From a virus (taxonomy: Duplodnaviria > Heunggongvirae > Uroviricota > Caudoviricetes), in the IMG/VR virus record IMGVR_UViG_2671180275_000007: DNA of 5,202 nt, one strand, 5' to 3'. Positions 155 to 5,202 of this stretch are shown here, piece by piece; position 1 is the stretch's first letter; the number at the start of each line of letters is the position of its first letter. A model generated the notes under the pieces. That model was given only the letters and a program-made list of their open reading frames with translations, was not told where the DNA came from and made no database searches. The translations under genes were made by a program, and so were the position numbers.

Positions 155-502
155 TTAGCCAGCATTGCGGCCTGATCGGGATGATTTTTGGGTAACGTCG
201 ATTGAAGCCAGATCGCCCTCCGACTGAGAAGATCCATCAAGAGAGAGAGCCGGGGCAATTTGACCCCCAGCTTCAAACGTTTCATCAGTTGTTAACCAAA
301 GTGCATATTTTTTAAAACGTAAATTTTTTGTGATCTTTAATAAGATCTCACTTCCGATTCCATCTTGCCTTCCCGTTTCGTAATACCTCTGCGTATTAAC
401 AGGAATCCCTGTAAGCTCAAAGAATTGCTTCCTTGTAAGCCTCTCACTTTTCCGGATCATCAAGATTTTTTCACCGATACTTATTGACAGTGTCGAATTC
501 AT
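155..502 (-). CDS. Immunity repressor, XRE-family helix-turn-helix, P2 C-like
   Basis: ORF track 155..553 (-); I place the start at the internal ATG (500-502), giving MNSTLSISIGEKILMIRKSERLTRKQFFELTGIPVNTQRYYETGR...FKKYALWLTTDE...GGQIAPAL. The HTH lies 8 aa from this N-terminus, and the block pattern (EKI..MRKSE.L.R.Q...LTG.P...YYE.GR, KY.LW, GQIAPAL) matches my recollection of the P2 C repressor. GAGGA lies 10 nt upstream of the 502 ATG on the minus strand; the ATG at 541 and TTG at 553 have no RBS. Stop TAA at 157..155. Confidence 0.85.
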   Translation of the reverse strand: MNSTLSISIGEKILMIRKSERLTRKQFFELTGIPVNTQRYYETGRQDGIGSEILLKITKNLRFKKYALWLTTDETFEAGGQIAPALSLDGSSQSEGDLASIDVTQKSSRSGRNAG

Positions 503-603: not shown

Positions 604-1128
604 ATGCGGAAGTCAATTGCCGATAAAGAGTTATCTGACACACAAGCCCTTCAGGAAAACGACAGCATCACCGAATCCGTTGGTGCGGAAAACGACGATG
701 AACACCAAGAGGAAAAGAAAAAACGCACCTACAAAAAAGGGGCAACCTTGCGACTGGATGGCCCGGTAGCCGGACTTTGCTCACTTGAAAAAGGGGCAGC
801 CTATATCGGGTTGACAAAAGCTGCATTGCGCGTGGCGCTTCAGCGAAATCAGATGCCTGGACACAAGACCCGTTCAAACCCTGAAGATGAAAATTCGGAT
901 GGCGTATGGTGGTTTAACGCCAGAGAGTGGGACAAGCTGGCTGACGAACTACCAGAATGCGAGCCGCCAGAATGGCACAACTGGAAAAGCTACTGGACGT
1001 ACGACCGACAGAAAAGAAAGTTTTCCCCGGCAAACAAAGAAGACTGCCAGACCATCAATGGAAAGCGGGTTTACACAGGAAGAAAGTCAAAACTGGAGCA
1101 ACACCAATACAGCGAAGGCAACCAGTGA
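604..1128 (+). CDS. cox: Cox/Apl-like winged-HTH regulator/excisionase with acidic N-terminal and W/K/R-rich C-terminal extensions
   Basis: ATG 604 with AGAGGA 6 nt upstream. Central segment LEKGAAYIGLTKAALRVALQRNQMPG...GVWWFNAREWDKL has the HTH-plus-aromatic-wing pattern of P2 Cox as I recall it (AKLIGKSTGAVRRMIDKGKLPV...GEYWVYLPAWN) and of excisionase-type HTH domains. First gene to the right of the repressor, as for cox in P2. At 174 aa it is about twice the length of P2 Cox; an internal TTG at 745 with an AAAGGGG Shine-Dalgarno-like sequence would give a shorter Cox-sized N-terminus (alternative start). Confidence 0.65.
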   Translation: MRKSIADKELSDTQALQENDSITESVGAENDDEHQEEKKKRTYKKGATLRLDGPVAGLCSLEKGAAYIGLTKAALRVALQRNQMPGHKTRSNPEDENSDGVWWFNAREWDKLADELPECEPPEWHNWKSYWTYDRQKRKFSPANKEDCQTINGKRVYTGRKSKLEQHQYSEGNQ

Positions 1129-2450: not shown

Positions 2451-2684
2451 ATGAAAACCGTTAAATCACCTGACAAAGAAATAAGCACCGGACAGGAGCA
2501 CATGCACGCACATATCAGCATGGCCGCAAGAAATGCCGAGCGTGCGCATATCTGCGAAATACTGCGCGAGCGGATTGACGGGATGAAAGAAATTAACGCA
2601 TCCCCGGAACAAATCTACTCAGCCATTGAGCGATTAATTGCTGTGCTCATGAACACCCGTGAACAGAAAGGTAACGCACAATGA
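2451..2684 (+). CDS. Hypothetical protein (77 aa)
   Basis: ATG 2451 with AGGAGA 6 nt upstream; stop overlaps the exonuclease start as ATGA (2681-2684). No motif recognised. Confidence 0.65.
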   Translation: MKTVKSPDKEISTGQEHMHAHISMAARNAERAHICEILRERIDGMKEINASPEQIYSAIERLIAVLMNTREQKGNAQ

Positions 2685-3262
2685 ACCACCTCATGATTGA
2701 CACTGAAACACTGGGCTCCGGACCGGATGCCGTCATATTCGCAATTGGCGCGGTGTTTTTCGACCCGTTCACCGGAAAGCTGGGCAAGCAGTTTGAGCAA
2801 TTCATCGACCCGGTGGATTCAGAACGCAACGGCGGAACCGTCAATGCAGCAACCACTGTATGGTGGGCCGGACAATCCGTGGAAGCCAGAGCCTGCCTGC
2901 GCAACGCAAAGGGAACAGAGCTTGCAGCAGTGACCGAATTTCTGGCGTTCATTTCACGCAACATGCATGACGAAAGCCCGGGCAATTCACTGACCATATG
3001 GTGCAAGGGCGCATCCTTCGATTTCCCGATCCTGAAATCCGCCATAACACGCACAGCCGGAGAAAAAAGCATTCCGTGGTGCTACTGGAACGAGCGCTGT
3101 ATGCGCCCGCTTATCGCCATGGCTGAGTCAACGGGCTGGAAAATGCCAGGCAGATCAGGAAAAGAGGCCATTGCTCACACCGCACTAAGCGACGCCATTT
3201 ACCAGGCAAAGATCGTGTCAGAAATCTGGCAGCGCTTCACAACACCATTCCTGAACATATGA
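2681..3262 (+). CDS. DEDDh-family 3'-5' exonuclease, small DnaQ/RNase T-like fold (Rv2179c-like)
   Basis: Exo I motif MIDTETLG at the N-terminus (D-x-E), Exo II-like IWCKGASFDFPIL, Exo III HTALSDAIYQA (H-x4-D) near the C-terminus. Size (193 aa) and motif spacing match the short phage/actinobacterial Rv2179c-like exonuclease family as I recall it. Translationally coupled to the upstream ORF. Confidence 0.85.
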   Translation: MNHLMIDTETLGSGPDAVIFAIGAVFFDPFTGKLGKQFEQFIDPVDSERNGGTVNAATTVWWAGQSVEARACLRNAKGTELAAVTEFLAFISRNMHDESPGNSLTIWCKGASFDFPILKSAITRTAGEKSIPWCYWNERCMRPLIAMAESTGWKMPGRSGKEAIAHTALSDAIYQAKIVSEIWQRFTTPFLNI

Positions 3263-3271
3263 GGTGAAGCC

Positions 3272-3499
3272 ATGGTCGCCATCCTGAATATGCGTTGCCG
3301 CCCCCCCCTGAACGTGGAAACAAAAGCCCGCACGTCTCTGCGCTTATTTCGCAACGGAGCGCGGAATTTTTCACGCATAAAGCCCCACGACTACCTGGTC
3401 ATAAGAATCGGTTTTCGCTGGCGATTACTGAGCAAAAACAACGGGAAGTCATGGGATTTATTAACGCACGAAACCTATAACAGAGAGGCCGCGTTATGA
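3272..3499 (+). CDS. Hypothetical basic protein (75 aa) containing a C8 homopolymer tract; coupled to dam
   Basis: ATG 3272 with GAGGTG 5 nt upstream; stop TGA 3497-3499 overlaps the dam ATG 3496-3498 (ATGA). R/K-rich product (MVAILNMRCRPPLNVETKAR...). The C8 run at 3301-3308 encodes RPPL. Coding status rests on RBS and coupling geometry only. Confidence 0.4.
   Translation: MVAILNMRCRPPLNVETKARTSLRLFRNGARNFSRIKPHDYLVIRIGFRWRLLSKNNGKSWDLLTHETYNREAAL
3301..3308. repeat. Homopolymeric C8 tract (G8 on the minus strand)
   Basis: Read directly: gccgCCCCCCCCtg at 3297-3310; the only homopolymer of 8 or more G/C I can see in the window. Lies 30 nt into ORF 3272..3499. Confidence 0.9.
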
Positions 3500-4470
3500 G
3501 CGAAAAACTGTTATCCGGCACACCGCTGAAATGGGTGGGCGGAAAAAACCGCATCATGGACACACTGAAGGCGCACCTGCCAGAAGCTGACTGCCTGGTT
3601 GAGCCGTTCGTGGGTGGCGCATCGGTATTCATGAACACCCGTTACAGCCGCTGCATCCTTGGAGATTCCAACGGTGCGCTGATTAATTTCTGGCGGGCAG
3701 CACGGGACAACACCGACAGCCTGATCGATGAGGCAAAAGACCTGTTCCTGGAACATAACAACAGGGCTGACTATCTCGCCATCCGCAACACCTTTAATGC
3801 AGAGAATCATGCATTCCTGAGCACGGGAATAAGCGACCGCCGTGAACTGCGACTGGCCGCCATGTTTTTGTACCTCAACCGGCACTGTTTTAATGGCCTG
3901 TACCGGGTGAACGGAAAAGGTGATTTTAACGTGCCTTTCGGCGGCTACCGAAAACCCTACTTCCCTGAGCGGGAAATCCGCGCATTTGCAGACAAGGCAA
4001 ACAGCACCCAAACGCTGCTTGTTCATGGCGATTTTCGAAAAACGCTGAGCTGTGCCAGCCACCTGTTCAGCATGGGTAACACGCTTTGCGTGTACTGCGA
4101 TCCCCCTTACCTGCCATTCAGTGGCCGGGACAATTTCACCGCCTATGGAAAACCCTTCACGAAGGACGACCACATTCGCCTGAGAGCAGCGCTTGACCGC
4201 CTTTCACAGGAAACGGGCGGCATGACCAGCATCACCATCTCCAATTCCGACACACCGGAAACCAGACGCATTTATCAGGGTTACCGGATGAACTGCATAC
4301 AGGCACCACGAAGCGTTGGCGCAAGAACCAGTGAACCCGCAATGGAAGTTATCGCCACCCTGAAGCAGTGCGACACCTGCGGTCGCCATGGCGGTGGCTG
4401 GTGCCCGGACTGCGGCCCGGCGACGGGAGATGCAACGTACAGCGCGATGTTTACCTCTGCTCACCCGTGA
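3496..4470 (+). CDS. dam: DNA adenine methyltransferase, Dam family (GATC N6-adenine MTase), with about 45-aa C-terminal Cys4 extension
   Basis: Strong block-by-block match to E. coli Dam as I recall it: LKWVGGK (Dam LKWAGGK), CLVEPFVGGASVFMNT, FLYLNRHCFNGLYRVNGKGDFNVPFGGYRKPYFPE, catalytic VYCDPPYLPFSGRDNFTAYG (DPPY), ISNSDT. Extra C-terminal tail contains CDTC-x7-CPDC (nt 4369-4413). Antisense ORF 3511..4173 is spurious. Confidence 0.95.
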   Translation: MSEKLLSGTPLKWVGGKNRIMDTLKAHLPEADCLVEPFVGGASVFMNTRYSRCILGDSNGALINFWRAARDNTDSLIDEAKDLFLEHNNRADYLAIRNTFNAENHAFLSTGISDRRELRLAAMFLYLNRHCFNGLYRVNGKGDFNVPFGGYRKPYFPEREIRAFADKANSTQTLLVHGDFRKTLSCASHLFSMGNTLCVYCDPPYLPFSGRDNFTAYGKPFTKDDHIRLRAALDRLSQETGGMTSITISNSDTPETRRIYQGYRMNCIQAPRSVGARTSEPAMEVIATLKQCDTCGRHGGGWCPDCGPATGDATYSAMFTSAHP

Positions 4471-4505
4471 ATAACCAGATGAATCAGCAACACAGGAGTC
4501 AACCG

Positions 4506-4751
4506 GTGAATAACAAAAGCACGCAGCAATCAATCGTCGTTTCAGCACTGAGATATCTGGCCTGCATCAAACAACAGGAAGCAAGAGAGGCGGTGGAGAA
4601 GCGGGATTCGGGGATATTTGTGGCACTTGGACACAGCTATACGGCAATGCTTGCCAGCAGGTCCGCTGAATTCATTGAGGAGCAGCAACGGGAAATTGAG
4701 GCACTTAAAACCGCAGCAAACAAGGAACGGAGAGGAAGGGGCGAACAATGA
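4506..4751 (+). CDS. Hypothetical protein (about 81 aa; GTG start favoured, ATG 4479 alternative)
   Basis: In-frame with track ORF 4368..4751, whose first 33 codons overlap the dam 3' end (dam stop 4468-4470) and are unlikely to be translated. GTG 4506 is preceded by AGGAG (4494-4498) at 7 nt; ATG 4479 lacks an RBS. C-terminal part is charged and coiled-coil-like (EEQQREIEALKTAANKERR). Confidence 0.5.
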   Translation: MNNKSTQQSIVVSALRYLACIKQQEAREAVEKRDSGIFVALGHSYTAMLASRSAEFIEEQQREIEALKTAANKERRGRGEQ

Positions 4752-4966
4752 TCCAGGAATCAACCGTTATCCGGTTCACAGCCAACGGCCGTCAGTACGA
4801 AGTCGACGAAAGCCTGATTGACCCGGGCATGACACGCCAGGACTCACGCAATCCTGAGATGCATCACATCCGCCTTATCAACGGCTCGCACTTCTGCGCC
4901 ACGAACATGGAAGAAGTACGCGTGCTGACAGCAACACGCAACACGGGAGGTACAGCATGGCAGTGA
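4748..4966 (+). CDS. Hypothetical protein (72 aa)
   Basis: ATG 4748 overlaps the upstream stop (ATGA, 4748-4751); GGAGAGGAAGGGG purine-rich RBS upstream. No motif recognised. Confidence 0.55.
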   Translation: MIQESTVIRFTANGRQYEVDESLIDPGMTRQDSRNPEMHHIRLINGSHFCATNMEEVRVLTATRNTGGTAWQ

Positions 4967-5202
4967 TTTATATCGCCGGTCCCATGACCGGATACAAAGA
5001 CCACAACAGAACGGCGTTTTCCATGGCGGCGATGAAGCTTAAGTCAGCCGGATACACCGCACTCAACCCTGCCATACTGCCGGACGGACTAAGCCAGCAG
5101 CAGTACATGAGCATTTGTATTTCGATGCTCATGTGTGCCGATGCCATTTACTTACTGGAAGGCTGGACGGAGTCAGCTGGCGCACGGGCTGAGTACGCAA
5201 TG
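4957..5202 (+). CDS. DUF4406-like protein (nucleoside 2-deoxyribosyltransferase-like fold), N-terminal 82 codons; continues past window end
   Basis: Not in the ORF track because it runs off the window. ATG 4957 with GGGAGG 6 nt upstream, overlapping the upstream ORF by 10 nt. Own translation MAVIYIAGPMTGYKDHNRTAFSMAAMKLKSAGYTALNPAILPDG...CADAIYLLEGWTESAGARAEYAM shows the IY(I/L)(A/S)GPMTG...N...F......L...G....NP...L......C(D/A)A...L.GW..S.GA..E pattern I associate with DUF4406. No stop to 5202. Confidence 0.75.
   Translation, partial: MAVIYIAGPMTGYKDHNRTAFSMAAMKLKSAGYTALNPAILPDGLSQQQYMSICISMLMCADAIYLLEGWTESAGARAEYAM

Follow-up and report, generated by a model that had tools for sequence, protein, structure and literature searches.

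A portable Cys4 mini-domain on the Dam methyltransferase of a P2-like prophage appears to be shared with RecE and small early phage proteins

The IMG/VR record IMGVR_UViG_2671180275_000007 provides a stretch of 5,202 nucleotides (nt), referred to below as the window, which corresponds to the early operon on the Cox side of a P2-like (Peduoviridae-type) Escherichia coli prophage. The dam gene of this operon encodes a Dam-family N6-adenine DNA methyltransferase, the C-terminus of which carries four cysteines arranged in two CxxC pairs (Table 1). The enzyme belongs to a known type; what appears to be new is the widely distributed, portable Cys4 mini-domain attached to it. A common motif, C-x2-C-G-x2-GGG-x-CPDCG-x3-G-x2-TY, is found at Dam C-termini, in the middle of RecE proteins, in exonuclease fusions and in small early phage proteins.

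The 324-residue translation of dam ends in ...EVIATLKQCDTCGRHGGGWCPDCGPATGDATYSAMFTSAHP, followed by the stop codon (4468-4470). Its C-terminus reads ...EVIATLKQ-C292-DT-C295-GRHGGGW-C303-PD-C306-GPATGDATYSAMFTSAHP; the pattern C292-x2-C295-x7-C303-x2-C306 (nt 4369-4413) is thus followed by GPATGDATYSAMF. The cysteine codons occupy positions 4369-4371 (C292), 4378-4380 (C295), 4402-4404 (C303) and 4411-4413 (C306). The initial annotation of this DNA had given the tail as 4369-4470 with CxxC-x7-CxxC spacing, and the translation of the open reading frame (ORF) reproduces both exactly. It had also pointed out that E. coli Dam (278 residues) has no such tail, which is borne out by the alignment of PDB entry 2G1P only to residues 11-277. 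Two of its details have to be corrected. The catalytic core had been placed as ending near the ISNSDT block (residues 248-253), whereas homology carries it on through RSVGARTSEPAMEVIATL, which matches RSISSNGGTRKKVDELLAL of the E. coli enzyme, to about L289. The appended part corresponds to residues 290-324, i.e., about 35 residues instead of the proposed 45. When the residues of this Dam, which contains 11 cysteines, were shuffled, any CxxC-x5-20-CxxC arrangement arose in 707 of 200,000 shuffles (0.35%).

Table 1. Features of the dam gene and of its neighbourhood in the window (gene order was read across from the 98.5%-identical homologue annotated with the Prokaryotic Genome Annotation Pipeline, PGAP)
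Feature	Position	Strand	Basis and remarks
dam	3496..4470	+	324 residues, Dam-family N6-adenine DNA methyltransferase with C-terminal module
Dam catalytic core, residues 1-289	3496..4362	+	EPFVGGAS, DPPY 202-205, ISNSDT, RSVGAR...EVIATL; alignment to E. coli and P2-like phage Dams
Cys4 knuckle pair C292-D-T-C295-G-R-H-G-G-G-W-C303-P-D-C306-G307	4369..4416	+	invariant Cys; weak zinc-ribbon matches
Post-knuckle segment P308-A-T-G-D-A-T-Y-S-A-M-F319, consensus [PA]VMGDATYxxMF	4417..4452	+	T and Y invariant, or conserved to 90% or more, in every type of carrier
C-terminal end T320-S-A-H-P324 and stop	4453..4470	+	variable, not conserved
Helix-turn-helix (HTH) repressor	159..500	-	annotated homologue
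Cox-like protein	604..1128	+	annotated homologue; 174 residues
Small ORFs	between Cox-like gene and 2693		annotated homologue
Rv2179c-like 3'-5' exonuclease	2693..3262 in homologue mapping (window ORF 2681..3262)	+	PF16473, E=5.7e-51
'ParE family toxin-like' small ORF	3290..3499 (window ORF 3272..3499)	+	PGAP name
Hypothetical gene	4506..4751	+	81 residues; PGAP start in 98.5% homologue
Hypothetical gene	4748..4966		72 residues; annotated homologue
DUF4406 protein	4957..5202, past window end	+	PGAP name of homologue

The tail is conserved in phage-encoded Dams. The 120 best homologues include 118 sequences with a C-terminus, and the Cys4 pattern is present in 115 of them. An alignment of 72 full-length Dams was built from E. 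coli, Klebsiella, Citrobacter, Enterobacter and Raoultella sequences, most of which share only about 50% identity with the protein of the window; C292, C295, C303, C306 and G300 are invariant in it. The ratio of nonsynonymous to synonymous polymorphism (pN/pS) over the 27 module codons is 0.47 in the Dam frame, and the two remaining frames give 1.31 and 1.02; these values are only indicative, as they pool non-independent pairs from 8 related E. coli sequences.

The same frame is kept in independent complete genomes at 94-98% identity, so the possible sequencing frameshift near 4360-4470 raised in the initial annotation is not supported. A fused remnant of a downstream gene, also considered there, does not explain the tail either, since it is kept in the P2-like phages ST16-OXA48phi5.4, SI7, phiT5282H and SEN5 beside differing downstream genes: dam is followed by gpA in ST16-OXA48phi5.4; in SI7 and SEN5 its place is taken by other small ORFs or by a second methyltransferase. 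Attention had further been drawn to ORF 4368..4751, which does begin at the tail in another frame, opening one base before the C292 codon, but to which no significance can be attached. Its 5' extension (4368..4505, 46 codons) is non-coding. Four related loci (L007, L010-L012) have a stop codon 5 codons upstream of the annotated start of the downstream gene, this start being a GTG at 4506 preceded by a Shine-Dalgarno sequence (AGGAG at 4494-4498), and pN/pS in the frame of this ORF is about 1.0 across the tail region. The extension is best regarded as an accident of the window's lineage, open only there. By these comparisons, nt 4369-4452 encode a real mini-domain under selection, about 30 residues long, on a complete Dam.

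The portability of the module was revealed by a search of 1.84 billion (1.84e9) representative proteins with a 36-position profile of the tail, which gave single clear matches in non-Dam proteins of several types. Three proteins (P0141, P0155 and P0167) are RecE/exonuclease VIII-like and carry the module centrally, together with PF06630 and/or PDDEXK domains. Another three (P0138, P0139 and P0151) consist of a RecE-type N-terminal region, the module and an Rv2179c-like 3'-5' exonuclease, which belongs to the same family as the product of window ORF 2681..3262. Six proteins of 79-190 residues (P0124, P0125, P0127, P0128, P0142 and P0144) end in the module. The relationship can also be detected from the window protein itself: residues 289-320 match positions 255-286 of phrog_20376, 'exonuclease' (E=1e-7), and residues 279-320 match the NCBIfam equivalog for RecE, NF007259, at positions 516-556 (E=2e-4). 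This local match, the only one to that model, scores 19.6 bits against a cut-off of 1269, and a Pfam search of the window Dam found no hit to PF06630, the N-terminal Exonuc_VIII domain. The window Dam is not a member of the RecE family, with which it has one module in common.

Comparison of 55 module sequences from all carrier types shows the four cysteines and the tyrosine to be invariant, while the glycine after the second cysteine, the GGG loop, the P-D of CPDC, the following glycine and the threonine are conserved in at least 90%. Among 50,697 phage genomes, tblastn with the consensus module found only P2-like Dam genes, recE genes (of Rac-type, lambdoid and Stx phages and of an Actinobacillus phage) and one 299-residue ORF of an Aeromonas phage. 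The latter has a variant first knuckle; its segment CPDCGAVMGDATYQEMF is identical to CPDCGAVMGDATYQETF of the Rac-SA53 RecE at 16 of 17 residues. In IMG/VR, at least 485 contigs encode the module, and the carriers in the best 80 of these are 63 Dams, 16 proteins of the RecE-N type and 1 small protein. In species-representative genomes the module is essentially limited to the Enterobacterales, with Kluyvera, Yokenella, Citrobacter, Trabulsiella, Buttiauxella, Hafnia, Pectobacterium, Erwinia, Klebsiella and Escherichia species. No model in Pfam or NCBIfam covers it, and no description was found in the literature of the motif, of zinc in RecE or of the module in P2-like Dams. It looks like a shared, portable, previously undescribed Cys4 mini-domain.

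The small carriers are encoded in a lambdoid early-left operon (RecT...RdgC-carrier...integrase) and in a Mu-like early region beside Kil and GemA. In Erwinia rhapontici, a 47-residue ORF (L033, 3971..4114; MQYRRCCRCGKVCDGCDRTGGGHCPDCGPCAGYSADCWESDENPIPF) contains almost nothing apart from the module and an end resembling the C-terminal tip of the single-stranded DNA-binding protein (SSB); located between the integrase and the gpA-like replication gene of a small integrated element, it may be a real gene or a remnant. The gene that follows small carrier P0127 (L037, 5537..6541) encodes a 334-residue protein with DnaJ-like CxxCxGxG pairs (CSRCKGHG ... CPDCGGRG), so that this early operon contains a further Cys-rich element of another kind.

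Several apparent matches were discarded. The top-scoring long surface or repeat proteins (P0121-P0123, P0129, P0131, P0136 and P0146) are judged not to be homologous. They have 6-18 repeats, each ending in 'GW[ST]Pxxxx V[TS]GDATYTAxF' (e.g., GWSPxxxxVTGDATYTAxF), which resembles GWCPDCGPATGDATYSAMF but contains no cysteine, and their scores are judged to be sums of many weak matches of chance or convergent origin. Two Bacteroidales loci (L034 and L036) were rejected, as they have only GGGWCPDCG in common, inside an ordinary zinc ribbon. A 41-residue profile of the module searched against an index of 5.8e9 proteins returned 9 short fragments only, which is not a census, because the word index favours short proteins.

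The signatures CxxCG and (W)CPxCG, represented here by C292-DT-C-G and C303-PD-C-G, are those of the two knuckles of a rubredoxin-type zinc ribbon. A profile search of PDB sequences gave weak pattern matches only (the 2LCQ ribbon at E=0.0036, and TFIIB). The Pfam zinc-ribbon models (DZR, Zn_Ribbon_TF, Zn_ribbon_3 and others) reach 8-17 bits against cut-offs of 23-29, with the RecE-type sequence only, so that no Pfam model attains its threshold. No hit to the DnaJ-type PF00684 (CxxCxGxG repeats) was obtained up to E 10, the motifs of the module being CxxCGxxG and CxxCGxxxG. The module probably binds metal, as its sequence strongly suggests, and chelation of one Zn2+ by the two knuckles is the most likely arrangement. 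The description of the tail as zinc-ribbon-like stands as far as the CxxCG...CPxCG knuckles are concerned; the ordered zinc-binding fold implied by it rests on inference, with the tail modelled at a predicted local distance difference test (pLDDT) score of about 50-60.

The module would most likely act as a zinc-stabilised protein-interaction handle that brings phage proteins to a common partner conserved in Enterobacterales and neighbouring groups, a reading to which a probability of roughly one half is assigned. According to this scheme, the two rubredoxin-type knuckles, which are joined by the glycine-rich 7-residue loop and followed by the conserved GDATYxxMF segment, would hold one Zn2+. 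Otherwise unrelated phage DNA-processing proteins would be tethered in this way to one partner, e.g., a hub of replication or recombination. Catalysis would be left to the Dam core alone, with the module as an accessory.

Four kinds of evidence together favour a protein-binding handle: the varied placement of the module, its acidity, the constraint on GDATY and the loss of the ligands in one phage. The mean net charge of the module is -1.8, and no basic residue is conserved across contexts. R297 is the only basic residue conserved in Dams, and Q, H, M, K, A or T takes its place in other carriers; the flanks of the RecE module are strongly acidic. The net acidic charge and the lack of a conserved basic residue count against DNA binding. 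The strong conservation of GDATY, which provides no metal ligands, points to a selected, ligand-binding surface and not to a bare scaffold: in all types of carrier, the P, D, G, T and Y positions behind the second knuckle are conserved to the same degree as the cysteines.

The ligand loss is found in Klebsiella phage 3LV2017 (L006, 3302..3484). Its Dam core is intact, whereas the cysteine ligands and the TY motif are lost: GDVGRNSGACGAW stands where the knuckles would be expected, the acidic end ...GEPSDEHA is kept, and no alternative frame at the 3' end of this dam restores the motif. The protein can be considered a natural 'module-dead' Dam variant, and the loss of the ligands beside an intact core suggests that the module is accessory to the methyltransferase. 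In Salmonella phage SEN5, the 3' end of dam (L005, ~3350..3466) keeps CxxC...CxxC and adds a second Cys-rich stretch, CAQCCPGIAACEEGWSFDCCGNCDICEPSDNPETW, which may form a second metal site.

The part of the tail beyond the module varies. In other lineages, 16-51 residues follow the fourth cysteine, often with an acidic ...E[PGA]F end. An acidic C-terminus ending in F or L, with at least 2 acidic residues among the last 8, is present in 122 of 176 distinct Cys4-tailed Dam proteins (69%), for example ...AEGF, ...TQEPF, ...DLEAF and ...ESEENPIPL (P0023-P0120; L015-L035; L042-L106). The E. coli clade of the window ends in ...FTSAHP, without such an end. A clamp-binding motif of the QLxLF type was sought by eye in GDATYxEMF and rejected, as Q is missing from the Dam versions and the residues are not spaced correctly.

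A number of points weigh against the handle, in addition to the narrow basis of the pN/pS estimate. The 7-residue glycine-rich spacer between the knuckles is shorter than in classical zinc ribbons. AlphaFold2 gave a mean pLDDT of 59.6 for the full Dam with the 72-sequence alignment, the tail remaining below about 52, and of 55.8 for the module alone with 55 sequences. A Foldseek search of the PDB with the module model gave no significant hit (best E=1.7). Finally, the large carriers are without exception enzymes acting on DNA, and a role in binding nucleic acid would suit them just as well. Both low-confidence AlphaFold2 models contain isolated beta-bridges at the knuckles and form a short helix across ATYSAMF; the top Foldseek hits, none of them significant, are rubredoxin and RanBP2/NZF-type Cys4 fingers some 30 residues long (e.g., ZRANB2).

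A more ambitious version of the handle, which is tentative and rather unlikely as a whole, would make the module a portable recruitment domain of Enterobacterales temperate phages, docking Dam, RecE, DnaQ-like exonucleases and small effectors on one host hub. The replisome, the clamp loader or SSB-coated DNA could serve as this hub. In 69% of Dam homologues the module is followed by an acidic, SSB-tip-like ...EPF end, which would be consistent with docking of this kind. If true, this would be the bacterial-virus counterpart of PCNA- or SSB-tail-mediated recruitment and would account for some of the N-terminal region of RecE, which has long been unassigned.

The main rival of the protein-binding handle is a small nucleic-acid-binding zinc finger, which would add contacts with duplex or single-stranded DNA, ends or hairpins to the carrier enzyme and, for example, increase the processivity of Dam or steer it to replication intermediates. 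Zinc ribbons often bind nucleic acids, DNA is the substrate of every large carrier (Dam, the RecE nuclease, DnaQ-like 3'-5' exonucleases), RanBP2-type fingers such as ZRANB2 are among the weak, non-significant Foldseek neighbours, and an aromatic residue, the tyrosine, is invariant, with W or Y frequent before the third cysteine. This possibility is nevertheless considered unlikely, given the net acidic module, the replacement of the Dam-conserved R297 in other carriers, the poly-acidic flanks in RecE and the small carriers, in which searches of profile libraries recognised no other DNA-binding domain.

A counter-defence peptide, which would bind and neutralise, or evade, a component of host defence or a nuclease, is improbable. 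Such a module would act alone in the small carriers or ride on enzymes that are sensed by defence systems. The small carriers contain little beyond the module, their genes are located beside those for Kil/GemA or RdgC in early 'host takeover' regions, and the 47-residue Erwinia ORF is almost the module only. Dam and RecE have been described as anti-restriction functions and as retron triggers, which provides context only (bioRxiv 10.1101/2020.06.22.160242). The retron effects are catalytic and were obtained with the module-less host Dam (bioRxiv 10.1101/2020.06.22.160242). No defence-related homology was found for the module in searches that did not extend to the PADLOC library, and counter-defence is in any case a special case of protein binding rather than an independent line of evidence.

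Equally improbable is a purely structural cap, in which the metal cluster would only stabilise or fold the C-terminus or mediate self-association, with no external ligand. Cys4 clusters often have structural roles, and phage 3LV2017 kept an intact Dam core after losing the ligands; a Dam-specific stabiliser, on the other hand, is unlikely to be reused unchanged in RecE linkers or at the C-termini of unrelated small proteins, and the strong conservation of GDATY points to a selected surface. An artefact, whether a sequencing frameshift, a read-through fusion with the downstream gene or a region belonging to ORF 4368..4751, has in its favour only the opening of that ORF one base ahead of the C292 codon and is, on the comparisons made, excluded, given that frame and tail recur in many independent genomes and phages, that selection is seen in the Dam frame only, that the overlapping extension is stopped in relatives with a Shine-Dalgarno sequence and GTG at 4494-4508, and that downstream genes vary among tail-bearing phages.

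The methyltransferase to which the module is attached is a genuine Dam-family enzyme. PF02086 scores 180.2 bits over residues 13-265 (cut-off 22) and TIGR00571 232.9 bits (cut-off 114.85), both placing the protein in the Dam family. The match to E. coli Dam (PDB 2G1P, 278 residues) has E=1.8e-53 over residues 11-277, and the 98.5%-identical homologue is labelled by PGAP as DNA adenine methylase (975 nt). The S-adenosylmethionine-binding FxGxG motif is represented by EPFVGGAS (residues 36-43), and the catalytic D202-P-P-Y205 is invariant in the alignments. The GATC-contact residues K9, N120, L122, R124, P134 and Y138 of the E. coli enzyme are aligned to K12, N133, L135, R137, P147 and Y151 of the window protein; in the same alignment, Y119 and R137 of the E. 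coli enzyme correspond to F132 and G150. GATC specificity of the window Dam is plausible, since the E. coli-equivalent contact positions are conserved. The host-dam equivalog NF008152 gives 221.4 bits against a cut-off of 441, so the window Dam belongs to a separate phage lineage and is not the orthologue of chromosomal dam.

Positions 3496-4800 of the window are 98.5% identical to a prophage adjoining menA/rraA in E. coli JNEC-KY179, and related copies are present in 29 of 5,426 complete E. coli genomes. A megablast search of the phage collection with the dam region gave no match, the element being known only as a prophage. The Rv2179c-like exonuclease gene lies two genes upstream of dam, and in other prophages this domain forms the last part of fusions that start with a RecE-type N-terminal region followed by the Cys4 module (P0138, P0139, L024-L026, L104-L115), so that the module and this nuclease travel together in differing arrangements.

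Other genes of the operon can be described briefly. The product of 604..1128 has a Cox-like region at residues 58-129 (PF10743, 25.3 bits, just below the cut-off of 27.5), is about twice as long as the Pfam Phage_Cox model (87 positions) and bears an acidic, lysine-rich N-terminal extension. The stop codon of the 'ParE family toxin-like' ORF overlaps the dam start codon (ATGA at 3496-3499). The annotated length of this ORF varies from 141 to 228 nt across homologous prophages, and no antitoxin partner is evident. Downstream of dam, the 81-residue protein has a weak match to phrog_9338 (function unknown) and to nothing else, and the start of the DUF4406 gene (4957) overlaps the stop of the 72-residue gene.

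As regards the initial annotation, its observation is confirmed and its interpretation partly supported; the sharing of the tail with RecE and early proteins lay beyond its view. Dam methyltransferases and RecE are familiar from textbooks and in daily laboratory use, but the module of about 30 residues that they share has no domain model, and no description of it was found. The value of the finding lies less in Dam than in this link to RecE and phage early proteins, which eases the search for a partner. What the N-terminal part of RecE does was stated to be unclear in a 2023 review (PMC11610958). Should the module be a targeting handle, it would be the first defined element in the uncharacterised part of RecE that is needed for efficient linear-linear recombineering, would reveal how temperate phages steer enzymes of DNA modification and of recombination to one shared site in the cell, and would supply a compact tag for protein recruitment in E. 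coli. Should it be a structural zinc cap only, a useful annotation would result, namely a new small domain family on at least 485 viral contigs and in prophages of many Enterobacterales genera.

Among known systems, DNMT1, with its PCNA-binding motif and CXXC finger, and CcrM, with its C-terminal DNA-binding domain, offer a functional analogy: a methyltransferase core bears an appended element thought to direct its action. There is no sequence relationship, and the analogy would hold only if the module recruits Dam to a partner. The acidic F/L ends of the Dam homologues resemble the C-terminal tip of SSB, DDDIPF. With the small zinc ribbons and rubredoxin-knuckle fingers (TFIIB, the C-terminal ribbon of 2LCQ, RanBP2/NZF) the module has in common two CxxC knuckles, CPxCG and a length of about 30 residues; it differs in its spacer of only 7 residues, in missing the profile thresholds and in the low confidence of its predicted fold. 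The host E. coli Dam has the whole catalytic core in common with the window protein (FxGxG, DPPY and the aligned DNA-contact positions) but stops about 12 residues past the core, without a Cys4 module. In the Rac-type RecE (exodeoxyribonuclease VIII), the module is internal, with long acidic linkers on either side, and precedes a PD-(D/E)XK nuclease. Although RecE has nothing else in common with Dam, it carries the same module, C-x2-C-G-x2-GGG-x-CPDCG-[PA]-VMGDATY-x-E-[TM]-F, which agrees with the window tail at 16 of 27 residues and, on the DNA level, at 54 of 81 nucleotides.

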